From NCBI GenBank assembly GCA_051294375.1, contig JBJCIZ010001242.1, positions 1-14,009 on the forward strand: a stretch of DNA of 14,009 nucleotides, written 5' to 3'. Positions 1 through 14,009 of this stretch are shown one piece after another. The notes beneath the pieces were generated by a model. That model was given only the letters and a program-made list of their open reading frames with translations, was not told where the DNA came from and searched no databases. Position 1 is the stretch's first letter. Each line of letters begins with the position of its first letter. The translations under genes and the position numbers were made by a program. The DNA comes from Paraspadella gotoi. Lineage: Eukaryota; Animalia; Chaetognatha.

Positions 1-1790
1 TCTTTGTTTTTTTAAATTGGTTTTATTTCTTTGCCTGCCGAAAAAAAATAAGAAACCTAACGATCTTTGGAAATATCGTCTGCCCGGGGCTTTATTTAAC
101 ACCGTTTCTTAATCATACCTCTTTACTTTTAGATTTCAGGTCGTGTAATAATCAGCTTGGGGTTTGTCTTAACTCTCATATTGTACAGTTTGTGAAAAGA
201 AAACCGTCTTGCCTGTTTTTTTTTAAGTTTTATATTTCTTTTTTTAAAAAATATCGGTAAATAATACGATTTATTTCTGTTATTTTTTTAAATGTTTTCA
301 TAATTACTTTTTTGAATCTCAAGTTAGTAAATAGTTTTCGTTTTTTTCTTGTGTATAGGGATGAAATATAAGGAAGAACGAATTTGTTTTTAAGTCTATT
401 TTGTGATCCGCCGTAGTTGAGAGAAAGTCTACATAAAATTAATAGGTCAGAACGAAAGAGAGAGAGAAGGAGACATATTATAAATAAGAAATGGAAATGG
501 TTTCGTTTGTTTGAATAGAAAAGATATTTAATTAACATGTCCTCTAACCGCAATTTTACAACCTGCGATGATGTATTGTGCTAAATAAGTGATACGGTTA
601 ACGTTCTTTATTGTCTTTTTTTCTTTGATCATAGGTCGTTTTCTCCTTGTTGTGAATATTTAAGGAAGTTATAATCTTTACTGCTCTTTTGTAGTCACAA
701 TTGGATAAGTTGGTGAAGAAAGAAAAGACTGCGTTTTATTTTCCTTGTGGTTTTTAAGAGAGTTGGGTTATCATTCTTGTATCTTCTGAGAGAATATCGT
801 CTGTCCGGACTTTAGTATGTTATAAACAGTTTTTATCCCTTATAATGACTGGGCTTTAGAAAAGATCTACGTATTATACACGATGTTTTGTGGACTCTTA
901 TATTTTCTTTTTACTAAATTGGAAAAAAGAGAAGCGTTGTTTGCCCAGTTTTTTTTTAAAGTCGTTTTTATTTTTTTTTACATTGAAAAAATGCGTGTTC
1001 TGATTAAATTGCTTTAAAGTTTCATCCACAAGTACTTTTAGCGAAAACAGTTCGTTTTCCAAATCGGTGTATTTAATCGAACCTGTGTTTATCTGATTTG
1101 AGAGTGAGAGAAAGCTCATAAATATTAAAAGAGAAAAAGAGGAGGAGAAGGAGACATAAAAATAAATGTAGAGGAAATTATGTTTTAGGTTTGGGGAAAT
1201 AAAAAAAGATATTATACTGTAACTGATCCACTCGACCGCTGCCAATTGTTTATTAGCAAACCTCGTATGAAATGTTAATAGTTGGCAAAGTATTTAACGT
1301 TTTTATTTCTTTTTTCTTTGAAAATAGGTCGTTTTCCGGGTGGTTTTAGAAAGGTTTTTTTATCTCTTTTTTAACTATTGGAAAATGCACGCCGTTTTTT
1401 CTTGTGTGTTTTTAAAAAAGTGTGTTTGTCTCTCTTTGGAAATATCGTCTGCGCTTGGAGTTGTACTACGTTTTTTTAATCACTTTTTTGCTTTAGAAAA
1501 GTTTCGTTTTTAATAATCAGTGTTTATTGTTTTATATTTTTTTTTTCAATATACATTGGAAACGCTCTTGGCCGGTTTTTTTAAAGTTTTATTTTTCTTT
1601 TTACATTTGGAAAAAGTCGGGGTTATTCTGTTCTGTTATTTTTAAAAAGTTTTCATCAATCTTATTTACCCTAGAGAAAAAAAGTTTTGTCTTTGTACTG
1701 AAGTTCTTTAACGTGCGTCTTTATATATTTTTGTTCACTTTATACTCTAAGCTACGAGATAGTTTCTGACGAATTTTCTTGGCCTATAAA
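1..1790. repeat. Degenerate T-rich tandem repeat, unit ~650-720 bp, ~2.5 copies (host flank)
   Basis: Motifs recur collinearly: AATATCGTCTG at 72, 793, 1441; ATAGGTCGTTTT at 631, 1324; GCTTTAGAAAAG at 853, 1490; a TGCC/TGGCC-GTTTTTT-AAGT block at ~210, ~942, ~1570. ORFs here are low-complexity F/L/K-rich. Confidence 0.75.
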
Positions 1791-1801
1791 ACACAGGGTT
1801 T

Positions 1802-2029
1802 TGTAATATCTATTGTAATATATTAAGGTAAACAAATACAAAATATATTCAAAAGAGAAACGTTTCCTTCGGAGCCCACGGCTAAAATACCACAGTTTAC
1901 AGGAAGAATCGGCGAAGTACAAATTGTTTACAATTAATCTCTTTTATTTACATTTACAACTGGCTGAGAGGAACAAAAGGAAAAATAAAGAACCGACATT
2001 TGATTCGGTTGCACCTCGATATTCTGACA
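1802..2029 (-). repeat. Candidate 3' LTR (~228 bp, TG...CA)
   Basis: Minus strand begins TGTCAGAATATC right after a purine tract. The other end reads TGTAATATC on + (imperfect terminal inverted repeat) close to where the tandem repeat stops. Minus-strand AATAAA at 1943-1948. No second copy in the window to confirm it. Confidence 0.5.
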
Positions 2030-2038
2030 TTCCCCCCT
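2030..2038 (-). promoter_or_regulatory. Candidate polypurine tract (PPT)
   Basis: Minus strand AGGGGGGAA directly followed by TGT, the usual PPT/LTR junction pattern. Confidence 0.6.
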
Positions 2039-2282
2039 AAAATATAATTAATAGAACTTATAATTAATTATTGAAACAAAACAAATGGAGGTTTAACAGA
2101 ACGTAAGATTAACTGTGGCCGAAAGACTATAGCAAACAGTAAAAGCGAGCAAAACAAAAGGCAATAGTAATATACGAAAAGGAATTCAACAATCAATTCA
2201 AATGTTTACTAATAACCAGGGCGACTACGCCTTTTATTGGAATCTAGGGCCGACCTCGAATATTGATCGGTCATTGGTTACA

Positions 2283-2290
2283 TATATAAA
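2283..2290 (+). promoter_or_regulatory. TATA box of antisense transcription unit
   Basis: TATATAAA with inverted CCAAT (ATTGG) copies upstream (~2236, ~2273). No ATG between it and CAAAATG|GTAAG at 2360-2371. Confidence 0.55.
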
Positions 2291-2363
2291 GAAAACAGAA
2301 AGATATCAATCAAATACCAATACGGATATCGAAAAAATCGCCGCCAAAATTACGGACGACAAA

Positions 2364-3506
2364 ATGGTAAGCTAAATTTTGGAATAAACACTCGCCATCG
2401 AACAGTCGAAACTACATATAACTAAGAATTTACTTAACTCTAAATTAAATATACCAGAATGTTTTCTTTAATAATTTTTATCGCCATCGCTGCTTCGATC
2501 GCCTCAGAGCCGCTGGACCCTGAAGGGGAGCTGAAACTCTTATGTAGTCACCCGCAATTTTCGAATTCGGGCCTATGTAAGGGCGAGGTGACCTCGACGG
2601 GAACGGCGGCCATTTTACCGCCTTCGACTGTTTCTCCCATCCGAACAAGGGTCGGCGATTCGGTCAAGGCCCACGCCTTGGGTTTCGTTGAGAAACTTTT
2701 CGTCTCTATTGGAAGCGCTGTAGGACTCTATATCTCAGCGGTTTTAGTTTTACGTTTTCGGGTAAAGATGTCCTGGGTAGAAGCCATCACCTTGGCGTTG
2801 GCGTCATGCCGCGGTTCGAACGCCAGGTGTGTCTGGAATATACACAGAGACTCTGACCCTGGAGACGATATTGAGATGCGCTCCGTAAAAGTCAGCTATG
2901 TTTAAAAATTTTTAATTAAAAATAAATTTCACGACGGAGCTCAAGATGTGTTTTATTTGTATTTTAATAATTTTTAGGTTAATTTTAAAATTTATTTTAA
3001 ATTAGTATATTTTATTCAGGCGCCAGCCCACATCGAATTACTCACCAAGCTGGGATGGACGGTCGGACATCGTTGTCTCATAGAGGTTAATCAGCACGGA
3101 GCACTCGGCACATGCCAAACGGATCAGCGATGGATCTACTTAATCATCATCACATCGCTATCACTCGCCATGGCGCTTCTCGCCATTCGATGGGTCATTC
3201 GCAAATTCCAATATTGCGGTAAGCATGAAACAACACAACATAATATGAAACACAGAACACAAAATAAATGTTTGATATATATTTTGTCAAAATAATCAAT
3301 TACCTCATCAATTGATATAATTATTCATCTCCCCTTTTTTCTTTTTTTTTACAGTTCTTACGATGAGCTCATCTTTCTGCCTACGAGCAATCTGCTGCTG
3401 TTTACGGACAGAGGCAGCAGCCTCCGTCACTCCCGTTGCCAATCAATCGAAAACTTCGGCAGTCACCACGCCGAAAACGTCAAATTCCGTCATCGAGATC
3501 CCTTAA
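2364..3506 (+). CDS. Spliced 117-aa single-pass small membrane protein (exons 2364-2366, 3020-3218, 3355-3506), FAST-like architecture
   Basis: ATG|GTAAGC donor (2367), TTTTATTCAG| acceptor (3019), G|GTAAGC donor (3219), 23-nt pyrimidine tract + ACAG| acceptor (3354). Joined exons are 354 nt and open to TAA: MAPAHIELLTKLGWTVGHRCLIEVNQHGALGTCQTDQRWIYLIIITSLSLAMALLAIRWVIRKFQYCVLTMSSSFCLRAICCCLRTEAAASVTPVANQSKTSAVTTPKTSNSVIEIP. Exons are more GC-rich than the intron flanks. ATTAAA at 3520. Confidence 0.7.
2459..2905 (+). CDS. 148-aa predicted type I membrane protein of unknown function
   Basis: ATG start, signal-peptide-like MFSLIIFIAIAASIA, C29-x10-C40, TM LFVSIGSAVGLYISAVLVL, basic RFRVK, C-terminal SYV. 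GC-rich island in AT-rich DNA, followed by AATAAA. Confidence 0.7.
   Translation: MFSLIIFIAIAASIASEPLDPEGELKLLCSHPQFSNSGLCKGEVTSTGTAAILPPSTVSPIRTRVGDSVKAHALGFVEKLFVSIGSAVGLYISAVLVLRFRVKMSWVEAITLALASCRGSNARCVWNIHRDSDPGDDIEMRSVKVSYV
2921..2960 (+). terminator. Polyadenylation signal for the 148-aa ORF
   Basis: AATAAA at 2921-2926, 15 nt after the stop, followed by GT/T-rich GATGTGTTTTATTTGT at 2945-2960. Confidence 0.5.
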
Positions 3507-3636
3507 AGGAAACCATCTGATTAAAGCCATCGAATTTATTTTCTAAGTAAATAATTATTTTAATAGCATTAATTCTAACAATATTGATCATCCTAGTCGA
3601 ATATACACATTCTTAAATGGCTCCATCTCCACCAAG

Positions 3637-4254
3637 TCATTCCTTGACGAAGGTGACAGTCTTTTCTCTACCCATCACAGTAACGGTCCTAGTCGAGAAG
3701 TCAGACGTCTCCAACGACTCGAATAGCCAGTTAAGAATAGTTCGCACGAGATCAGTGCCACCGGGGTTCAGATGGATCGCATCACGATCATACAGCGGCG
3801 CGCATATACTATACCCAAGTGCTCTTGGTAGTGTGAGACATCCGTGACGAACATGTATATGTAATGGGTGAACCGGACGTATCGATTTGTCGATAAGAAA
3901 TGACGCATCGACAAAACTACCTCTATCAACCGTTAGCCGGGGAATAAGGGACATTGTAACAATGTGTACATTAGGATATAGGCTCCCGGCCAAAGAGACC
4001 AATTTCCGAAATTCGACTAAAAAAGATTCAACGGATAAATCTTTATCCAGATCATTTCCTCCTCCCATAATAACAATCGCCGAGAATTCACGAGTATTTC
4101 TACGCAGAATCTCGGTAAAGTGGCGGAAACGCCCGCCCGTGACGGACGTGGTGGTTACATCAGGGAGCTTCCCTTGCAAACGCCGTACATGGGAGTCGCC
4201 AAGGATCCAGTAGCCTTTTGTCACTCCTAAATGGGTCGAGACCATTTTCCCCAT
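3637..4254 (-). CDS. SGNH/GDSL hydrolase (esterase/lipase) ORF3
   Basis: Block I ILGDSH, block II GG, block III MGGGND, block V DAIH, so S, G, N, D and H are all present. First ATG at 4254 (second at 4245 in AAAATGG context). The TTG start at 4296 in the ORF track lies in a pyrimidine tract. Confidence 0.88.
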   Translation of the reverse strand: MGKMVSTHLGVTKGYWILGDSHVRRLQGKLPDVTTTSVTGGRFRHFTEILRRNTREFSAIVIMGGGNDLDKDLSVESFLVEFRKLVSLAGSLYPNVHIVTMSLIPRLTVDRGSFVDASFLIDKSIRPVHPLHIHVRHGCLTLPRALGYSICAPLYDRDAIHLNPGGTDLVRTILNWLFESLETSDFSTRTVTVMGREKTVTFVKE

Positions 4255-4268
4255 CAACCGGTAGTAAT

Positions 4269-4302
4269 CTGATAAGGAAAGGAAAACAAAAGGCAAATTA
4301 AT
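4269..4302 (-). promoter_or_regulatory. 3' splice acceptor for ORF3 subgenomic mRNA
   Basis: Minus strand CATTAAT-TTGCCTTTTGTTTTCCTTTCCTTATCAG|A: branch-like TTAAT overlapping the pol stop, long pyrimidine tract, CAG. Exon begins at 4268. Confidence 0.7.
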
Positions 4303-7300
4303 GACGGTTTATCTTCTTTATTACTTCTCTCGCTTGATCTATGTCAAGATGTGAACGTATTAATTGACACACTGGCAACAATAAAATTTCATTGTTAACG
4401 ATGTTTTTGACTCTATATATTCCAGTCCCTACTCTCTCCAAAACAAGAAACGCGGTCACAACCTTGGCCTGCAATTTCTTGTTCATGTTCAGAGCAAAAG
4501 ACATGCGTTTCCGAAACACAATTTCATCCTTCTTTAAAGCTTCTTTATTATCAGAAGGATTCGAATAGGTTTTATACGAAATTAAATTTGCATAAGCTGC
4601 TAACCTAATCTCACGATGCATCTTTAGCAGCTGTTCGAATTCATCTTCAACCGGTCCTCTCCCTTCAAACACATCGAGAAGGGGAGTTAAACATTTCATC
4701 GGATGACGCCGAGTAACTTGAAACGGACTTCGACCGCCAAGGGAGATAGAGGGCGTCATATTAATTTGGAATTCCACCTTTTTCAACACCTTAGCCCAGT
4801 TTTGTAAAGTAGGTTCATTCTCCAGCATTTTTAATATACGAATTAGGCAGATTTGATTTAAACGTTCTGAATATGCCTGATGTTTACTAGTATAATTACT
4901 TTGTCTTACTTTTACTCCTAGAGCATCGAGAATTTTTCGATCGATCCTTTTCTGAGTAACACATTTCCCATCAACAACCACACAGTCCCACAAACCGTGT
5001 GATTCGAACAACTTAAGGAAAACTTTGGCTACTTCCTCGGCGGAAGCACTCCGAGTGGGAAACAGAAAACATTCTCTCGAAAAGTGATCGCGCATGCTCA
5101 AAATATAACTGGCGTTGGAGACGCCCGCTCCTGAAGATCTCGGGAGTGGGCCCAAAAGATCACAGGAGAGCATCTGGCGAGGGCCCGCAGGGAGCATGCT
5201 AGAGGGCACCTCCTTAACCGTTTGTTTAATATTATAACTTATACAGACATGACAGGTTTTCAGTTTTTCCTTAACCAGCCTATTCATACCTGGGGTGTAA
5301 TATTTCTGGGCAATTAATTTAAACGTAGTCTGAGCTGAACAATGCCCATAGCTTTCATGCGTTTCCCAGAGAACTTCAAACAGGAAATCTTTATCGATCA
5401 AAACCAGAAAATCAGGAGAATCGCTTTCTCTCACGAAAATTCTGTAAATTATTCCTTGTTCATTCATCTTAAATAGAGAAATATGCCTTAGCACAGTAAG
5501 GTCCAACGAATCTAGTAACAGACATTCATTCTTGTCTGGCGTAGTAGATGGATCAGAGATCCATAACTTCCACTTAACAATGGAAGGGGATTCAGCTTGC
5601 AATACTTTTATCTTTGTAAGAAACGGGTCCCGGAGTTCAGGTAACTGGATATCCTCATATTCATCTGTAATTTCTAAAACCTTTGTCCCGCTGAGGATCT
5701 CCTCAGAAGACGAAATGAGCGCTTTCTCTTTATCATCATGCGCATTAGAAAATTTTTGATTGGGAGGATTTTTATAAAAATGCAAATGCAGTAAATCACA
5801 ACAGCAAGTGCAGTGAGAATCACCTGTGCGGTCATATAACACACAGGTACAGGAGACGCATTTTGAGCGTATATTTGGACCTTTCATTTTGAGTCGAGTT
5901 TTACGTCTAGCTAGACGCCCGATTTTAACATCACCACCGGGTAGGTTAGATTCGGCATACAACCCAGAGGGTTGGTCCGCCCTGGACACTCGCCCAGTGG
6001 TAGCCTCAGTCGTAGACACCCCCAAACTAGATTCTGAACTTTCCAAACTTATATCTACATTTTTAAGTTTTGCCAAGGGGCCCTTTTTACCCGCCTCAAA
6101 ATACCTATTCATGACTTTCCTCTTGTCACTAGAGAAAAGACTTGAAAGTGGGACAATACCACCATGAGAGTTATATATGACTAAGTTACAAAATACATTC
6201 CCAGCAGTGGGTGCATCATCAGACACCTCATCTCTGGGCAACTGTCTCGTTAGCTGATCCGCAGCATTTAAAAACGAAGGAATAAAACGGACTGTTATAT
6301 CAAAATCTTGTATATATGTCATGGCTCTAGCGACTCGCTCACTACAAATATCCATACTGACCCAGTAGGATACTACTCTACTGTCCACAAAAACGTGTAC
6401 TGGACAACCAATTAAGTAGTGGCGGAAATGCCGTAAACTTTCTGACAAAGAAAACAATTCTTTCAGATAAATCGGCAGTAATGTGTCGCTAGGCGTAAAT
6501 GTTTTGGAGAAATACTGTAACAAGTACATCCTCTTCACGTCAGGTGGCGCTCCAGCAAGAATCTCATGCTCAGAGGGCAACTGCAATTGGCAAAGCACTG
6601 AGCCGAGAGCATCCTTGCTAGCATCCGTGAACAAAACATAGTCGTCCCCTTCTATAGGGGCACGCAATACTCCGGTCTTACTGTCCAAGAGTATATCAAT
6701 GCAACGATGGAACGCCTTTTCCTCTACATCACCCCATTTGAAGCGAACTGAAGCTTTCGCCATTTTCCTCAGAGGAGCTGCTGCTTCGGTCAGGTTCACC
6801 TTATGGCTGTACCAAGCAAACTTACCAAGCAAACTCTTCAAACCAGCTTTGTCGGTGGGCGGCTTAAGATTACGCAATGAAGTAGTTTTGTGAGCAGGAA
6901 CGCGGTGAATGGTTTTATAAGAAACCGCATAACCCAAAATCGTTTGCTGTGAGAGAGCAAGAGAAACTTTCGCAGGATTAAATTTCATGTTAAAGTGGCT
7001 CATAGTAGCATAGAATTCTTCTATGTCATCCAAGTGGGACTCGTGATCCATTGAGGCGACAGCATAATCGTCAATGAAAACAAAGCAAAAAGGCATCTTT
7101 TTGCAAATGAAATTTGACACCTTTTGGGCATCCTGAGGTGCAGATTTCAGTCCCATTGCATAACCACAGAAGACAAAGATCTTAGACTGTGCATAAAATG
7201 CACCAATGTCTTGTGAATCCTTGTGTATCGGGAGCTGCCAGAAATAATTGGAACTATCGAGGCACGATATGACCTTATATTTCGACACTTTGTCAAGTAA

Positions 7301-8848
7301 CTCATCCATGAGCACCATGCGATAAGCACGAGACTCAATGAGCTTGTTCTGGGACCGATAATCAATAGTGAGCCTATTTTTGAGTTTGGTCTCACCAGTA
7401 ATCGGGTTAGTAATATGACTACTGACAATGTGCGGATTCGCAATGTATCGGGAATCAGTTACCTCGCGTATTATTTCTCCCTTAAGGAGCATCTTAACAT
7501 AGTTCTCCAAGATCTCCGCTTTGGCTGGGGACATCCGGCGGTACCTGTCGATAGTAGGGGGTGGATCCTTTATCAAAGGGATTTTAATAGGAGGTATACG
7601 TACTTTCTCCTTCATTTGGCGCCAACGGCCAGTCCAAAATATCCCCCGATAATCCCAACACAAATCTTGATGTTTTTTCAAAATTTCCTCAGCCTTAAGG
7701 GGCTCAGACTCCTTAAGTTCTTTCCTTAGATCCTCCCATTTAAACTCCGCCAGGAACTTCTCCTTATCGGGCCACCATTCATCCTCCTTCACATCCCTGT
7801 TTCTCTCTTTTTCTCTCTTTCTGTCGATCGTAAAATCAAAGTCCAATTCGCCACTCTCACTCTCTCCCTTCCTCTCAGGAGGAGTGAATTTCATCCCTCG
7901 CTCCAAAACTTCATCCGTCTGATGAGCATCCAGCTTCGAACCCGGAGGAAGGGAAAAAACATCGACAGGATCATCGGAGCGAGACGAACAAACATCCGAA
8001 TGGTGAGAATCATCCCGTACTCTAAAAAATTTAGTCACATCACAATCTTCATCATCGTTTTCAAAAACAACATCACCGAGAGATTGATTAACCCTAATAG
8101 ATCTATCATATTTATTCGTATTAGCAATCAAAACATAATAATTTTTTACCTTCTCTTCAAAATGAACCCCATTAACAATAATGCCATCATATGGGTCAAC
8201 AGGGATAAGCGCATGTTTAGTATTCGGGAAAACATATGACGATAGACGAACAGGAACAGGAGTAAGTGATTTCGCTTTCAATATAACGGGTAACGGGGAA
8301 TAAAAATAAATGGGTTCCTGATCGACAGAAATATTCATGTCGGCATGAGAGATTCGATCACGAACGTCAATTTTATCATACAATTGGACACGTTCGTCAA
8401 AAATATGCAATAAATTATTACTATAATCAATCATACATTTATTTTCTCTTAACCCTAACACATCGCTACCCAATAACATAGGAAAATCACCATTTACAAT
8501 GTGAACAAAAACAGACAAAATAACATTAGAAATGCGAACTTTCACAATAGCATAATATTTACATGTGACCTTACCTCCGATTCCGTTCAAAACTCTAGGT
8601 CTAGCAAAAGATTTAATATTTTTAATATTTAAACGTTTAGCTTCAGAAGCGGGCATCAATGTCCTATCACTGCCCGTGTCGATTTCAAAATAAGACGGAA
8701 AGAAATTTCCGTGAACAGAATCTTCAGAAATATCACATCTCAAAAATAAACTTTTAGCTTTACCTTGATCGAGATTAACATTTTCCCGTTCCTCTATTTC
8801 ATCTACTAAAGTCCCTTTAATGGACTTCGCTGCCTCTAGGCAGCTCAT
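4298..8848 (-). CDS. pol: Pol polyprotein (aspartic protease, RT, RNase H, DDE integrase), 1516 aa
   Basis: PR IDTGS (8672-8680) and LLGSD; RT FIDD (7067-7078); RNase H FTDAS (6617-6628), YFSK, KEL, VFVDS, NAADQLTR; integrase HHCC (5243-5359), core D (CDLLGP), D (VVDG), E (YSER) spaced D-34-E. No stops or frameshifts. Confidence 0.96.
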   Translation of the reverse strand: MSCLEAAKSIKGTLVDEIEERENVNLDQGKAKSLFLRCDISEDSVHGNFFPSYFEIDTGSDRTLMPASEAKRLNIKNIKSFARPRVLNGIGGKVTCKYYAIVKVRISNVILSVFVHIVNGDFPMLLGSDVLGLRENKCMIDYSNNLLHIFDERVQLYDKIDVRDRISHADMNISVDQEPIYFYSPLPVILKAKSLTPVPVRLSSYVFPNTKHALIPVDPYDGIIVNGVHFEEKVKNYYVLIANTNKYDRSIRVNQSLGDVVFENDDEDCDVTKFFRVRDDSHHSDVCSSRSDDPVDVFSLPPGSKLDAHQTDEVLERGMKFTPPERKGESESGELDFDFTIDRKREKERNRDVKEDEWWPDKEKFLAEFKWEDLRKELKESEPLKAEEILKKHQDLCWDYRGIFWTGRWRQMKEKVRIPPIKIPLIKDPPPTIDRYRRMSPAKAEILENYVKMLLKGEIIREVTDSRYIANPHIVSSHITNPITGETKLKNRLTIDYRSQNKLIESRAYRMVLMDELLDKVSKYKVISCLDSSNYFWQLPIHKDSQDIGAFYAQSKIFVFCGYAMGLKSAPQDAQKVSNFICKKMPFCFVFIDDYAVASMDHESHLDDIEEFYATMSHFNMKFNPAKVSLALSQQTILGYAVSYKTIHRVPAHKTTSLRNLKPPTDKAGLKSLLGKFAWYSHKVNLTEAAAPLRKMAKASVRFKWGDVEEKAFHRCIDILLDSKTGVLRAPIEGDDYVLFTDASKDALGSVLCQLQLPSEHEILAGAPPDVKRMYLLQYFSKTFTPSDTLLPIYLKELFSLSESLRHFRHYLIGCPVHVFVDSRVVSYWVSMDICSERVARAMTYIQDFDITVRFIPSFLNAADQLTRQLPRDEVSDDAPTAGNVFCNLVIYNSHGGIVPLSSLFSSDKRKVMNRYFEAGKKGPLAKLKNVDISLESSESSLGVSTTEATTGRVSRADQPSGLYAESNLPGGDVKIGRLARRKTRLKMKGPNIRSKCVSCTCVLYDRTGDSHCTCCCDLLHLHFYKNPPNQKFSNAHDDKEKALISSSEEILSGTKVLEITDEYEDIQLPELRDPFLTKIKVLQAESPSIVKWKLWISDPSTTPDKNECLLLDSLDLTVLRHISLFKMNEQGIIYRIFVRESDSPDFLVLIDKDFLFEVLWETHESYGHCSAQTTFKLIAQKYYTPGMNRLVKEKLKTCHVCISYNIKQTVKEVPSSMLPAGPRQMLSCDLLGPLPRSSGAGVSNASYILSMRDHFSRECFLFPTRSASAEEVAKVFLKLFESHGLWDCVVVDGKCVTQKRIDRKILDALGVKVRQSNYTSKHQAYSERLNQICLIRILKMLENEPTLQNWAKVLKKVEFQINMTPSISLGGRSPFQVTRRHPMKCLTPLLDVFEGRGPVEDEFEQLLKMHREIRLAAYANLISYKTYSNPSDNKEALKKDEIVFRKRMSFALNMNKKLQAKVVTAFLVLERVGTGIYRVKNIVNNEILLLPVCQLIRSHLDIDQAREVIKKINRH

Positions 8849-8857
8849 ATTATGTCA
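8829..8857 (-). promoter_or_regulatory. Candidate gag-pol stop-codon readthrough signal
   Basis: GAA TGA CAT AAT ATG: pol is in frame with gag. UGA-C context, and a GCUGCC-UAGA-GGCAGC hairpin begins 10 nt after the stop. Confidence 0.5.
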
Positions 8858-11218
8858 TTCAAAATCAGATTCGTGGAATTCATAGTCCTCGAAATCATTC
8901 GAAAAGGCAACAATATTTTTAACGCCATCTTTCCCTATTTTAGGATCGCTCCCTTTCGAAGGGAGGGCCGCTCGAAATTTCTCCTTCGCCGCAATAACCT
9001 TCGTCACATCTTCTGGACATCTACGACAAAGAAGAGAAACATGCCTCCCATTTTCGTTGTACTGTTTACAAAACAGACAATATTTTAAAGAGCATTTTAT
9101 CATGGCATGCCCGTGAGTAAAGCATTGAAAGCAACAACCAGCCGGCATTTTTTTCTTCTCGGCTGCATCAAAGAATTTCTGCATCCGGCTCTTCTTTCCA
9201 ACGAAGTAAAAATAATCATTCAAATCGTCGTCATGATTATCGTCGTCGCCGGAAACGGAATCCGAATCATCGGACGCCGGATAGGAACGGGCGGTCATCA
9301 CTCGCCGCTGTGGTGAAGGATGGGCAGACGAGGAGGAAGACGAACCCCCAACATAATCACGTGAGTCGGTGTGATAAGCACGTTGTGGACGAGACGATCT
9401 ATCTGGTCGGTCTCGTTTATCTTTCACTATATTATCATGTAATGCTGAAACGTCATCAACTATATCGGTAAATTCTTTTTTCCAAAAATTCGTATGACGG
9501 AGAGTATCTTTAATCTCCCTATTATTCAAACCCTCTATAAACTTCCATTTGTAAGATTCGACTGACCGACCAAGTCGATCACAGAACCCCTGAAAACGTA
9601 CAGAATATTCGTAGATATCCTCAACACCTTGTTTGAGAGATCCGAATCCTTGCTCCAAGGCAGATTCGTAACTGGGGAAACAGACACGGAAAATTTTATC
9701 GAAGAATTCGCTTACATTAAATACAGTAGTCTGTAACATAACTCTATCACCAGTAGTCTTAATTTTACCCCGGAAATGTGCACAAGCAATTAAACATTTC
9801 ACTCTCTCAGGAGTATCGAAAAAATAATTATTGATATCGATTTTTAGACTTGTTTCTAAAGAAATATATTCTATAATGTCTTTACAATCCTTAATAATAG
9901 TTTTAATAACTTTATTAGATTTATCAATAATTTGTAAAACATCCATTTCAGATAAACGACGATTCTCACGGTGATCTTCACCTGTTCCCTGGGAAGGAAA
10001 ACCACCGCCACCGTCGCCGCCAGCACCGCCGCCAGCGCCGCCGCCAGCACTGCCGCCGCGTCGAAATCCTCGGCCTCCTCTCCCACGAGGTTGTCGTTGT
10101 CCAAAGACTCCGAAGGCGTGAGAATATTCGTCGTCGTTTCTTCCTCTCGCCGCAGCTCCGCCGACCGTCTGCTGCTGGCGCGGATAGTAGCCAGGATCAG
10201 AGGATCGAAACGATCCCCTCGACGGACCGAAACCGCGATTGGCGGACATGGCCGGCCGGCCAAAACCGCCACGGTTAGGACGCTGGAAATGTTCCCTTTC
10301 TTCGTTCGACGAATAGCCAAAACAATCTGGATGACTCTGCCGCGGCCGTACTGCTGGTTCCATAGACAAAGCTGCGAGTCGATTCTGCCTCGAATCAACG
10401 GCCTCTGGTTTCGACTCCGCTGGAATTGGCACCGGAACTCGCACCGGAACTTGCACTTGGCCCGGATTTGGAGGAGGAGCAGGTGCAGTGGCAGGAGCAG
10501 GGGCAGAAGCAGGAACAGCAGCAGGAGCAGCAACAGGAGCTGCCGGAGCCATTGTCGTCGTCATAACAATCTTCGGAGAAGTGTGAAGAGTAGTTCCCAG
10601 GTTAGTAACAGTCCCAGGAAAAGGAGAGTTGAAAGGATTGAAATCAGCTGCAGGTGCTGTTTTGACGGGTATAGGAAGACGATAAGGATTTCTTTCTCCA
10701 CATTGTCGGCAAAATCGGTCTGAGGCCTCACAGGGAGAGTGAGAACAAACCGTCTCAGTCCCACGGTCTTGAGTAAGGCTCTCAGTATTTGTTGTTATTG
10801 TCGCCACAGGAGGAGCAACATGTGCAACGGAAGCGGGCGAAGAATGAGGAAGTCTCAGAGGAGGAGGTGGAGGGAGTAGTTCCGTTGGGAAAAGGACCTC
10901 AAGATCCAGATGTTCCTCAGGATCCTGCATCTCACGATCTGGACCAGCTGCACTATCCACGAGAACGGGGCGTGTCACAGGAAGTCGCTCATCAGTTTCC
11001 TGTTCGCCTTCCAGTCTATCGACGCAAGTACGTAGCTGTCGATAGTTTTCTCTTAACTGCTCCAGGGCGCGGTCAAGGTTTCCTTTGGGAACTCTTCCCC
11101 TCTTCGTACAGACAAAATTGTATTTATTTGTATTTTCTTTGTAGTGATGCGGGTCGTCCTCCCAGACAAAACACTTGTCGCAGTATTGTCCAGCAAGAGG
11201 ACAATCAGAGAGATCCAA
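8855..11218 (-). CDS. gag: Gag polyprotein (true start uncertain; frame open to 11305)
   Basis: MHR-like LKQGVEDIYEYSVRF...FIEGL (9527-9637); CCHC knuckle CFQCFTHGHAMIKC and a second CLFC-x8-H-x4-C (9026-9133); long Pro/Ala- and RGG/Gly-rich N-terminal half. Listed start is TTG; first ATG is at 10930. Confidence 0.9.
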   Translation of the reverse strand: MDLSDCPLAGQYCDKCFVWEDDPHHYKENTNKYNFVCTKRGRVPKGNLDRALEQLRENYRQLRTCVDRLEGEQETDERLPVTRPVLVDSAAGPDREMQDPEEHLDLEVLFPTELLPPPPPLRLPHSSPASVAHVAPPVATITTNTESLTQDRGTETVCSHSPCEASDRFCRQCGERNPYRLPIPVKTAPAADFNPFNSPFPGTVTNLGTTLHTSPKIVMTTTMAPAAPVAAPAAVPASAPAPATAPAPPPNPGQVQVPVRVPVPIPAESKPEAVDSRQNRLAALSMEPAVRPRQSHPDCFGYSSNEEREHFQRPNRGGFGRPAMSANRGFGPSRGSFRSSDPGYYPRQQQTVGGAAARGRNDDEYSHAFGVFGQRQPRGRGGRGFRRGGSAGGGAGGGAGGDGGGGFPSQGTGEDHRENRRLSEMDVLQIIDKSNKVIKTIIKDCKDIIEYISLETSLKIDINNYFFDTPERVKCLIACAHFRGKIKTTGDRVMLQTTVFNVSEFFDKIFRVCFPSYESALEQGFGSLKQGVEDIYEYSVRFQGFCDRLGRSVESYKWKFIEGLNNREIKDTLRHTNFWKKEFTDIVDDVSALHDNIVKDKRDRPDRSSRPQRAYHTDSRDYVGGSSSSSSAHPSPQRRVMTARSYPASDDSDSVSGDDDNHDDDLNDYFYFVGKKSRMQKFFDAAEKKKMPAGCCFQCFTHGHAMIKCSLKYCLFCKQYNENGRHVSLLCRRCPEDVTKVIAAKEKFRAALPSKGSDPKIGKDGVKNIVAFSNDFEDYEFHESDFE

Positions 11219-11844
11219 AAGACGCTGCTGTTGGAGACGACACTTCTGACGAAGTTCGTGGTACTCTTCAAGTTTGTTGCTGGAACCGCAAAGGAGACGT
11301 ACACATCAATACATTGAATAGCCTTCCTTTATACAGAAATTATTATCTACATTAATTTTAATAATTAGTTTATTCATCCTTTTACTATAGAATGCTGCAT
11401 ATTTTACATATTAAAATATAAGATAATTAACGAATACATAGTTATTACAATTTTAACTAGAATAATTTGTACGAACTGTTTATATATTTTTTTTTATATT
11501 TGCAATGTTATCTTTTGTTTAAAATACTTATATTTGTTTATTAATCCTGAGGCAAACCTGCCTCGGTCTGATACTCGATTTGTTGTGATGGCACTTAATA
11601 GGCTCTTTACTTCTGTGTCGACAAGGGCTTCCATATTTCTATTCACCCCGCGAAACGTACATAAAGGCCTTTTAATTAATTTCTATATGTTTTATATGCT
11701 CATTAGCAACACATTTTCCTTTCTTCATTTATTCAGCTATATTTACTTATAAGGTTCCCTATTATCGATTAAGCCCGTGGTTTCGAGATCGTCGTAAACA
11801 CACGGCTATTAGTTTATCATATTCATACTTTATGTTTGTTTTCA

Positions 11845-12129
11845 TTAAATTTTATGTAATGTTCTGTGTTCCCCAACAAGCACCCCCCATGTGAAACAAA
11901 CATAAACAAAACAAGGTGAATGAATGCATTCGAAGTTCGAACCACGACAAATGCAAACACTTGCCATAAAACAAAATATAATCAATAGAATTAAAACATT
12001 AACTGACTTCGTTATTTGTTCTGAAGACGGATCCGGAATAGCGGTCGTAACAGCCGGATCACTTAGGATGAACAGATCAGGGCCGAAACCGGCGTCCAAA
12101 AGGATGTCCGCAGTAGTCGGTGAGGACAT
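11845..12129 (-). CDS. 94-aa Cys-rich small transmembrane protein (sORF upstream of gag)
   Basis: ATG at 12129 (MSSPTT...). Acidic/Pro N-terminus, hydrophobic VLILLIIFCFMASVCIC, then CRGSNFEC and a second hydrophobic patch. Pyrimidine tract + AAG|G acceptor candidate at 12213. Confidence 0.5.
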   Translation of the reverse strand: MSSPTTADILLDAGFGPDLFILSDPAVTTAIPDPSSEQITKSVNVLILLIIFCFMASVCICRGSNFECIHSPCFVYVCFTWGVLVGEHRTLHKI

Positions 12130-12610
12130 ACGAGAACGCCTCAATCGCGTCGCAAAGTTTATTATCAATTACGAAATTAGATCAATTTCACAACCCGCAA
12201 AATAAAGATAACCTTAATAAAGGAAAAGTATATTTAAGAAAAGGAAGTAAACAAATAAATGTACCAAAACTAAACAAATAAATCAAAACACGCGATGCTC
12301 TTTTGTCAAAAACTTTAGCGAAATATCAAATTTGAACGATCCCGCTAGATGTCGCAGAACGACGGGCAGAAAAAACGCAAAACGTAAGATAAGACAAAAG
12401 AACAACACGTGCACAATGAAGAGAGAAAAAAAATTTTAAAAGAAAATTTAAAAAAACTTTAAACCATCAATTAATTTACTCATGTCTCAATATTATCTTA
12501 TAACAAAGAAAACGAGAAAACGAGTCGTAAAAATAACGCAAAATTAATCCAAAGCGAGAACGAACGCAATCAATAGGAGTTTCGGCGAAAACGCACACAA
12601 AGTCAGAGGA

Positions 12611-13327
12611 CTATATCTCGTCTTCCCCAGTCTCATCATTGTTCCACACAAGAGCGTTTCTGACTGGTGGGCCGAATAAATGAGTAACCCACCCCATCGC
12701 CGCATGATGGGCGTGCCAAAACCGGAGCTCCAACGGGGTAGCTCCCATGAGAAGAAACATTTCCGGCCGCACGTAGAACAAGGAGGACGACAGATCTCCT
12801 ACGGAGGGAATATGCAACCTCTCCGCCATGATGCGTGAGAAATAATCCACATCCAGTAGGAAATCCGGGTGAGGGTCGTATGAGCGTACCTCGCGAATGT
12901 TTTGGAATATCTGACCGTCAGAGTGAACCCCATCCCAGAATCCCAGGGACGTCACTCTAACCCTCCGACGGCCCACCGCCATGTCGTCCCAAGAACGACC
13001 AAGTCCAGTGCGGAGCGTCGCCATCTCCGAGCGACGCCCATCGTCCAGCAAAACAACGCCGAGTGCCTCACTCGGCCACGACGAGAAGTATCTCTTCATC
13101 GCCGTATCGTCGCAGAGTCGCAGGTCGTACATCCGTTCCCAGTAATACCCAGGAGTAATCCGCATCCTGGTAACGCTAGAGGCTGACTCCTCGGTCATCA
13201 TCGAGTCCATAAGCCTCGGGACCGGAAACCCATGGCACCGAACATGAGTCGGTCTGCCATTGAAACGAGTCTCGATGAACTGGGCGTAGACCTCCCTCGA
13301 CGCATAGAACGACTCTATCGAATTCAT
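12611..13327 (-). CDS. 238-aa hypothetical protein, no family recognised
   Basis: ATG-to-TAG ORF matching a GC-rich island between A-rich non-coding tracts. Globular-looking composition. Acceptor-like TTCTCGTTTTTTTAG| 54 nt upstream (exon start 13381). Confidence 0.7.
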   Translation of the reverse strand: MNSIESFYASREVYAQFIETRFNGRPTHVRCHGFPVPRLMDSMMTEESASSVTRMRITPGYYWERMYDLRLCDDTAMKRYFSSWPSEALGVVLLDDGRRSEMATLRTGLGRSWDDMAVGRRRVRVTSLGFWDGVHSDGQIFQNIREVRSYDPHPDFLLDVDYFSRIMAERLHIPSVGDLSSSLFYVRPEMFLLMGATPLELRFWHAHHAAMGWVTHLFGPPVRNALVWNNDETGEDEI

Positions 13328-13833
13328 AGAGCCGGCGTAACGAAACGGAAGCGCAATTTGTAATTAAATCCGTAAGCGAAACTAAAAAAACGAGAATAGG
13401 TAGAGTTACTCCGCAAACAAAACCAAAACGAAAAAACGAAAAAAACGAAAAAAAATGTAAACGTAAAACGAAATGATAATATTTCCAAAACGTAGCGATC
13501 GCTGGCAAGAAGAACGCAAAATTCAAAATTTCCAGACGACAAAATTCCAGAAAATATACCATCTCGGAGGGATGGATGTCCGCATCCATCAAAAGCATCG
13601 AGACAGTCCGTTTTTCATTGGAGGCCTTCGGACCCTCCGGAAACGTGAGAAAAAAAAATAATAAAAAAATCGAAAGGTCAATATTTATTTAAAAAATAAT
13701 TCTGCCCCTACATTCGACAAACGTCATATATAGCGACGAAGAGATAATTTTTATAGCGCACTCCCGTCGATATGCAGGGGAAACCAGGTTTATCCTCTAA
13801 CCCAATTTAATTATTTCATACGGATTAACGTCT

Positions 13834-13860
13834 ACGTCGACGTCGCTTCACGTGAAGCGA
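13834..13860. repeat. Overlapping perfect palindromes (10 bp and 18 bp)
   Basis: ACGTCGACGT at 13834-13843 and TCGCTTCACGTGAAGCGA at 13843-13860. Confidence 0.9.
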
Positions 13861-13937
13861 AGGGTCGAGTTTAACATCTACACGCGCAGATGTGAGACTT
13901 TACCCGGGGGATACCCACTTAAATACTTATAATTATC

Positions 13938-13969
13938 ACTTACATATACACACAAATATCACTCACCCG
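13938..13969 (-). promoter_or_regulatory. Two consensus 5' splice donors in the putative leader
   Basis: Minus strand CGG|GTGAGT (GT starts at 13966) and TAT|GTAAGT (GT starts at 13943). Confidence 0.45.
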
Positions 13970-14009
13970 ACCCCACTTAAGCAGCGGTAGCGCACAGAAA
14001 CGTGGGGAC

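Follow-up and report, generated by a model that had tools for sequence, protein, structure and literature searches.

The retrotransposon and its antisense strand

We analysed 14,009 nt of Paraspadella gotoi DNA (assembly GCA_051294375.1, contig JBJCIZ010001242.1, positions 1-14,009), referred to here as the window. The window is a single long Ty3/gypsy LTR retrotransposon carrying gag, pol and a GDSL-esterase ORF3 on the minus strand, and a domain scan recovered gag followed by pol in the protease-RT-RNase H-integrase order of gypsy elements. On the other strand from gag-pol, in the interval from the esterase ORF3 stop codon to the 3' LTR, lies a candidate antisense gene whose pieces of 3, 199 and 152 nt, joined at canonical GT-AG ends, give an open frame of 117 aa. 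An initial annotation of the locus had proposed these three exons, and both their coordinates and the open reading were reproduced. That annotation had overlooked a further frame of 148 codons, with a predicted signal peptide and transmembrane (TM) segment, nested within intron 1. The introns and the nested frame were called from sequence, and the features of the window are as follows.

1802..2029 (-): probable 3' LTR of about 228 nt, with a TG start and adjoining the polypurine tract; the far end could be 1814
2030..2038 (-): polypurine tract
2202..2363 (+): in-frame stretch upstream of exon 1 that would lengthen it by 54 codons, starting at ATG 2202; hydrophilic and lacking a signal peptide; frame open from 2133
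2364..2366 (+): ATG directly before the exon-1 donor, in an A-rich start context
2367..3019 (+): intron 1 as proposed, GT 2367 to AG 3019, 653 nt, enclosing the nested ORF
2459..2905 (+): nested 148-codon ORF within intron 1, 51% GC
3020..3218 (+): exon 2, with the outer Cys pair, the TM helix and a basic amphipathic stretch
3219..3354 (+): intron 2, GT 3219 to AG 3354, 136 nt
3355..3506 (+): exon 3, with Cys76, Cys81-83, a Ser/Thr-rich tail and the stop codon
3637..4254 (-): ORF3, a GDSL/SGNH esterase of 205 aa with its catalytic motifs and an MGxxxS start (PF13472, E 1.7e-5, a match that does not reach the curated cut-off)
4298..8854 (-): pol, an open frame of 1518 codons, with the domains protease, RT, RNase H, integrase
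8855..11305 (-): gag, an open frame of 816 codons (PF03732, E 2.4e-4, again short of the curated cut-off)

In a homologue search with the RT-RNase H region of pol, 6 of 5328 passed, all of them unnamed proteins at 24-28% identity; judged by sequence, pol is very divergent. The domain scan gave no dUTPase family match in pol, and no env family was matched among the 9 frames scanned against Pfam. Gag and pol share one frame with a single stop codon between them (8852-8857, minus strand). Pol carries a long acidic linker between protease and RT and a Cys/His-rich insert between RNase H and integrase (about 5750-5880, minus strand), and gag has a long N-terminal part (about 10700-11250, minus strand) with two Cys clusters followed by Pro/Ala-rich and Gly/Arg-rich stretches.

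For the esterase, none of 91 candidate homologues passed at E 0.001. The best minus-strand acceptor and donor by site score are 4269 and 13966, which suggests that the esterase could be expressed from an env-like spliced mRNA joining donor 13966 to acceptor 4269. Its MGxxxS start may be a site of myristoylation. Downstream of the esterase, the 3' LTR (1802..2029) could house an antisense promoter; the LTR ends are unconfirmed because no second LTR was found within the window.

Splice signals, first exons and diverged copies

By simple weight scores, donors 2367 and 3219 rank 7 and 6 among the 676 plus-strand GTs, and acceptors 3019 and 3354 rank 31 and 1 among the 789 plus-strand AGs. The exons have 51-52% GC, whereas the last part of intron 1 has 16% and intron 2 has 24%; a candidate poly(A) signal lies at 3520 (+). 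Introns this AT-rich and an A-rich start context would suit an invertebrate animal host. Exon 2 is the sole internal exon this strong, open and TM-bearing in the whole window on either strand. A comparable strong open TM exon arose in 2 of 1000 local composition-keeping shuffles of 2040-3636, a figure that is optimistic because the thresholds were taken from the real exon. The open frame alone is weak evidence, since exons 2 and 3 stay open in 7.4% of shuffles. Judged on these signals, exons 2-3 look like a real gene whose first exon is ambiguous.

This ambiguity bears on the earlier description of an "ATG-only" first exon giving a 38-aa N-terminus with no signal peptide, which did not hold up as the only option. 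ATG 2364 closes an open frame of 78 codons in which a further ATG, at 2202, is in phase; a stop-free in-frame ATG this far upstream occurred in 0.2% of 5000 shuffles. The start context is more A-rich at ATG 2364 than at ATG 2202, so leaky or alternative starts may be possible. Three further phase-0 donors, 2588, 2762 and 2827, the last of them the top-scoring plus-strand donor, also join upstream ATGs in frame to exon 2. Depending on the first exon chosen, the part before the TM segment could comprise 38, 44, 80 (with a signal peptide) or 92 residues, and the route through donor 2762 would add a second TM segment. As read from these frames, ATG 2364 is one of several possible in-frame starts, and the N-terminus is ambiguous.

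The nested ORF (2459..2905) encodes a predicted signal peptide, Cys29 and Cys40, one TM segment near residues 80-98, a basic patch and a tail. An open frame of this length occurred in 0.9% of shuffles. With a candidate acceptor of its own at 2457 (rank 96 of 789) and an AATAAA at 2921, it could possibly serve as an alternative last exon. It shares no similarity with the antisense exons. In the ESM Atlas, where we treated scores as meaningful from 0.9, its best match was an unnamed protein at 0.82; an influenza M2 look-alike scored 0.77, with a low recognition value for the query. Its AlphaFold model was poor (pLDDT 57). The ORF ends in S-x-V, which we take to resemble a class I PDZ-binding motif.

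One sequencing run, X1, presumed rather than recorded to be RNA, carries part of the region (0.18 of words). An X1 contig matching window positions 2405-2823 showed no difference and so carries no information on selection in the nested ORF. A diverged copy of the antisense gene was present as one contig, about 94% identical over 2936-3577, with 37 substitutions (36 listed) and 14 indels (12 listed); since this is a single contig at depth 3.5, the differences may be errors. In the proposed frame, 13 of the 21 exon substitutions were silent, where 30% would be expected (p=0.002); the other plus-strand frames gave only 3/21 and 5/21. Third-position changes numbered 14 of 21 (p=0.002) and the rough dN/dS was 0.26. 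All seven Cys codons remain Cys. Only 1 of the 12 listed indels fell in the exons (p=0.001), with 9 of the 12 in intron 2. The raw substitution rate was 6.0% in exons versus 5.2% in non-coding sequence (p=0.73), and the candidate poly(A) signal at 3520 is altered. We also considered a minus-strand reading of the silent-change bias; the mirror frame has the same 13 silent changes but contains four stops, and this reading was rejected.

The initial annotation had looked to conservation of splice sites and frame among copies. The three covered splice sites and the stop codon bear no listed change and the silent bias agrees with that expectation, but the one listed indel that falls in an exon removes 2 bases at 3209, close to where exon 2 ends, and may put the copy out of frame; of its 14 indels, two were not displayed. 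A second X1 contig (2383 nt, depth 20.5) aligned solely over 3366-3415, where the cysteine cluster is encoded, and agreed there in 42 of 50 letters (chance about 7e-6). In its unaligned flank a T-rich tract and CAG stand exactly 11 bases before the position corresponding to 3366, the same distance as in the window, and the contig is open and Ser-rich for the 10 codons displayed after 3415. On this alignment, the contig is a distant relative that keeps the exon-3 acceptor, phase and motif while its intron has diverged. Neither of these two contigs shows linkage to pol or esterase. The substitution pattern makes it likely that the antisense gene is under selection for its protein. Splice ranks, shuffles and selection in the diverged copy together support the earlier claim that the retrotransposon bears an antisense, spliced gene encoding a small membrane protein of the single-pass type, and we consider it very probable that the gene is real.

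Plus-strand splicing over the element was seen elsewhere in X1, as GT-AG joints 9360/9952 (depth 4.2) and 11027/11145 (depth 2.9) in one contig each; for the former, the listed 9952-10288 piece is identical to the window. Introns 9361-9951 and 11028-11144 (+), antisense to gag, are spliced in this run, and these joints indicate that plus-strand spliced RNA exists over the element. Neither joint over gag has an evident protein product, so some antisense splicing here may be cryptic. These plus-strand introns could also belong to a long antisense or silencing-precursor transcript. Junctions 2366/3020 and 3218/3355 were represented by no joint among the X1 contigs, which show presence and not absence. 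The sole contig across intron 2 and acceptor 3019 is unspliced, as in genomic-sense RNA, pre-mRNA or DNA.

The predicted protein and comparable systems

In the 117-aa reading, cysteines stand at 20, 33, 67, 76, 81, 82 and 83, the peak 19-residue hydropathy (2.33) begins at residue 39, R58, R62 and K63 are present, and the tail is 33% Ser/Thr, all of which agrees with the initial annotation. Directly after the TM segment the net charge is +3, and no other part of exon 2 has a higher amphipathic moment. The loop between C20 and C33 is not hydrophobic (mean Kyte-Doolittle 0.24). An AlphaFold check, also proposed earlier, was run on exon 2 alone as a single sequence and bore out part of the expected structure: the model contains a two-strand hairpin (17-24 and 27-34, exon numbering) and a long helix (36-64) with a mean pLDDT of 70.5, but only the helix is confident, the hairpin reaching about 50-70. 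At that low confidence, the hairpin register would place the two outer cysteines opposite each other. Taken together, these predictions support a single-pass small membrane protein.

Protein and fold searches used exon 2 alone rather than the whole spliced 117 aa, so features of the tail are absent from them. Exon 2 had no homologues among 5.8 and 1.84 billion proteins. Two HMMER matches in the set of 1.84 billion proteins were rejected as tandem-repeat proteins, their scores being sums over 7 and 10 short stretches. The ESM Atlas gave no usable exon-2 match, and language-model recognition was low, which is not informative on whether the protein is real; Foldseek with the exon-2 model returned nothing at E<=0.001 in the viral or PDB libraries. 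Viral and metagenome contigs contained no related locus. A 17-base exon-3 pattern occurred at at least 118 loci, none of them related by blastn or tblastn among the matches listed. Rfam gave no match, nor did Pfam for any of the three exons, the nested ORF or five other frames.

The initial annotation had likened the protein to the p10 FAST fusogens and had described the resemblance as architectural rather than homologous. Statements on published systems, here and below, refer to the available portions of the cited papers. The p10 ectodomain, about 40 aa long, has a hydrophobic patch enclosed by a cystine loop of 11 residues; the TM segment is followed at once by a palmitoylated dicysteine and then by a polybasic motif (PMC3961370, PMC12945298). 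Compared with p10 of avian and Nelson Bay reovirus, the predicted protein has an outer part of similar size, about 38 aa, provided that translation begins at ATG 2364, a pair of outer cysteines, one predicted TM segment, and inner cysteines with basic residues (PMC3961370). Its length and single predicted TM segment fall within the p10 range of about 100-200 aa with one TM, and the Cys pair of the cystine loop is present and kept in the diverged copy. The details fit less well. The cysteines here enclose 12 residues in a polar loop, in contrast to the 11-residue hydrophobic-patch loop of p10 (PMC3961370). There is no TM-adjacent dicysteine; with the TM segment ending near 57, the first inner Cys is 10 residues away and the triplet 24. 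The three basic residues (58-63) are placed before the inner cysteines and not after them, and a myristoylation motif is absent: none of the four candidate ATGs is followed by a Gly codon. Exon 2 showed no sequence or fold similarity to p10. The FAST-like layout extends to the small size and the single predicted TM; the fit to the cystine loop and the polybasic motif is partial, that to the short ectodomain depends on the first exon, and the adjacent dicysteine and the myristoylation motif are absent. With no sequence, profile, language-model or fold relative found, the likeness, as far as sequence can tell, is one of layout only.

FAST-like small proteins have only recently been tied to envelope-free retrotransposon spread. 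Voichek et al. described sORF2, a class of small FAST-like proteins of env-less insect MDG1-group Ty3/gypsy elements, proposed to tether or locally merge membranes where capsids gather (PMC11952523). The sORF2 proteins measure 63-107 aa with an outer part of about 30-40 aa, all 105 candidates are sense-strand, MDG1 transcripts are unspliced, and the proteins failed in heterologous assays (PMC11952523). The MGxxxS/T motif occurs in 4 of 6 Drosophila members and served as a filter for the 105 (PMC11952523); this demand for a myristoylation motif is a limit acknowledged by the authors (PMC11952523, PMC13486581). Like sORF2, the protein described here would be a small single-pass protein of an env-less gypsy element, predicted N-out, with a basic amphipathic stretch past the TM segment. 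The amphipathic ectodomain and basic/amphipathic tail of sORF2 have counterparts in hydrophobic moments of 1.8 near the start of exon 2 and 2.15 after the TM segment, for which no null was computed. It has 117 aa, and some Lepidopteran sORF2s also lie downstream of pol (PMC11952523). Unlike sORF2, the gene is antisense with two introns and offers a Cys pair and cluster in place of MGxxxS/T; two of the first-exon options also give a longer outer part than the 30-40 aa or so of sORF2 and FAST proteins. The sORF2 screen could not have found an antisense gene of this kind because it took unspliced, myristoylated ORFs. By analogy, sORF2 of env-less MDG1 elements is the best functional precedent.

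In position and orientation the gene resembles the antisense extra ORFs between pol and the 3' LTR (aORF-3R) of maize Grande (gene23), RIRE2, Retand (TRP28) and Boty, which encode nuclear or DNA-binding types in plants and fungi, with a promoter of its own shown for Grande (PMC7264820, PMC11963269, PMC4408406), and which in plants are proposed to be regulatory (PMC7264820). Those genes, too, have no database homologues. Antisense coding kept among copies is likewise found here, in one close copy and one distant relative whose contigs show no linkage to pol. The available text of PMC7264820 deals with plain ORFs, uses the word "intron" 0 times and calls for a search for antisense spliced transcripts. 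Two introns and predicted membrane proteins set the present locus apart, and no Pfam match to TRP28 or a plant mobile domain was found in exons 1-3 or the nested ORF.

Spliced antisense genes and antisense membrane proteins are each known from retroviruses. The antisense genes hbz of HTLV-1 and asp of HIV-1 are both transcribed from the 3' LTR; for hbz this does not depend on sense transcription, splicing comes with alternative N-termini and the product HBZ is nuclear, whereas ASP is a membrane protein that has cysteine triplets and two TM segments (PMC10186651). The likeness to our locus lies in antisense coding, in splicing for hbz and in membrane location and Cys triplets for ASP; these viruses belong to a different family, and homology is not expected. 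The asp gene of HIV-1 overlaps env.

Among animal elements, the bdelloid rotifer LTR elements Vesta and Juno carry a GDSL or small TM ORF3 proposed to act at membranes (PMC5408684). The present element shares with them a GDSL esterase at the ORF3 position of a gypsy-like element and differs in lacking a dUTPase match in pol; the available text on Vesta and Juno describes no antisense spliced gene (PMC5408684). The literature screened, as titles and abstract openings of mostly non-subscription papers, contained no report of an intron-bearing antisense membrane gene in an LTR retrotransposon. What is new here is the orientation, the introns and the nested second gene.

Proposed role and competing readings

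In the explanation that we favour, a promoter in or near the 3' LTR would give rise to an antisense RNA, from which splicing would yield at least one small membrane protein. The 117-aa form lacks a signal peptide and carries a net charge of +3 after the TM segment, so it would insert N-out/C-in, a prediction underlain by the positive-inside rule. The outer cysteines would staple a short hairpin. On the inner side, the basic amphipathic helix and the Cys cluster would gather the protein into patches at the plasma membrane, provided that the cysteines are palmitoylated, which we only infer. At these patches the protein would hold membranes together or merge them locally close to assembled capsids, the action suggested for sORF2, and the esterase and the nested signal-peptide membrane protein may be its partners. 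The introns would persist since, facing away from the genomic RNA, they would not be stripped by splicing in each copying cycle; the logic is that of intron-reporter assays, in which the intron is opposed to genomic RNA (PMC12786077).

By analogy with sORF2, such a protein may have a role in envelope-free passage of element particles between cells, which we regard as quite possible, if somewhat short of probable. In its favour we counted the 9 frames with no env match, the splice ranks, the 2/1000 null, the selection data and the sORF2 precedent; against it stand the exclusively sense-strand orientation of the 105 sORF2 candidates, the missing or weak p10 hallmarks and the lack of any homologue or fold match in the searches above. 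A weak point of this transmission role is that the cells making capsids need not be those in which the antisense gene is on. That the protein is a true fusogen we consider plausible, though less likely than not. Should it be fusogenic, the sORF2 idea would extend to a non-myristoylated, Cys-rich type under separate transcriptional control; if not, the gene would still represent an undescribed membrane function of a complex retrotransposon. In either case, an antisense intron-bearing gene is a hiding place in which accessory genes escape ORF-based transposon annotation, and it shows how an RNA-copying element can keep a gene with introns.

The same evidence for a real gene fits equally well with a regulatory or defensive membrane protein, expressed from the 3' LTR when sense transcription is off, that alters the host surface or blocks entry or spread of related elements and carries out no fusion. 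The weakness of the FAST hallmarks adds to this reading, as do the 3' LTR-driven, spliced hbz, independent of sense expression, the antisense membrane protein ASP with its Cys triplets (PMC10186651) and the regulatory role proposed for the plant antisense extra ORFs (PMC7264820). However, the plant and HTLV products that have been localised are mainly nuclear (PMC7264820, PMC10186651), and the combination of no recognisable env, a second membrane ORF and an esterase would point to a membrane step in the element's own cycle. We think a regulatory or defensive function rather unlikely.

A viroporin-like protein or budding helper would use a small oligomeric TM segment and an acylated amphipathic helix to bend or permeabilise membranes at release. 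M2/E-style small proteins are the comparison for such a role. The short outer part with its Cys pair, the single TM segment, the amphipathic helix and the Cys cluster would all suit it, and the nested ORF has its weak influenza M2 look-alike (0.77). That score is below 0.9 with a low recognition value, though, and belongs to the nested ORF and not to this protein, exon 2 itself having no sequence or fold match in the searches made; we judge this role improbable.

Equally improbable, in our estimation, is that a piece of a host gene was captured backwards with its introns and is carried passively, in which case the silent bias would derive from the host gene and the X1 contigs would be host paralogues. 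Reverse capture would explain the kept introns, and the contigs show no linkage to pol or esterase. Such an origin sits poorly with the failure to find a homologue among 5.8 and 1.84 billion proteins, with a close copy that is about 94% alike in its introns too, in a run that also holds other 89-96% variants of the element, and with the unspliced intron of the distant relative, as genomic-sense transposon RNA or DNA would have. That there is no gene, only chance splice signals in AT-rich DNA around GC-richer islands, is very improbable: its own junctions are not in the RNA data, raw exon divergence equals non-coding divergence, the only close copy has one listed frameshift and language-model recognition is low (which is not informative on reality), but third-position bias, indel avoidance, the acceptor phase kept in the distant relative and the 2/1000 null all speak against chance.

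The transmission role can also be extended to the whole element, which would then belong to a deep unnamed gypsy lineage with an antisense envelope-free kit: a 3'-LTR promoter, alternative splicing and polyadenylation, a FAST-like palmitoylated fusogen, a signal-peptide partner and a sense esterase. We regard this extension as distinctly unlikely; were it true, an entire class of retrotransposon fusogens would have gone unnoticed in ORF-based screens, these being spliced and backwards.

Three further observations concern other parts of the window. Upstream of gag lies a 250-codon sense ORF (12611-13363, minus strand) with an acceptor candidate at 13382; it had no Pfam match, one X1 contig agrees with it over 12659-13363 to about 89%, gaps making up 3 letters, and it is likely to be another accessory gene. 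In the integrase region, an X1 contig of a related copy contains a 61-base duplication at 5404-5464. Finally, positions 1-1800 form an AT-rich, loosely repeated flank in which 20-27-nt words recur about 650-720 nt apart; depth in X1 reaches about 890, and the flank is probably a satellite-like or other repeat.
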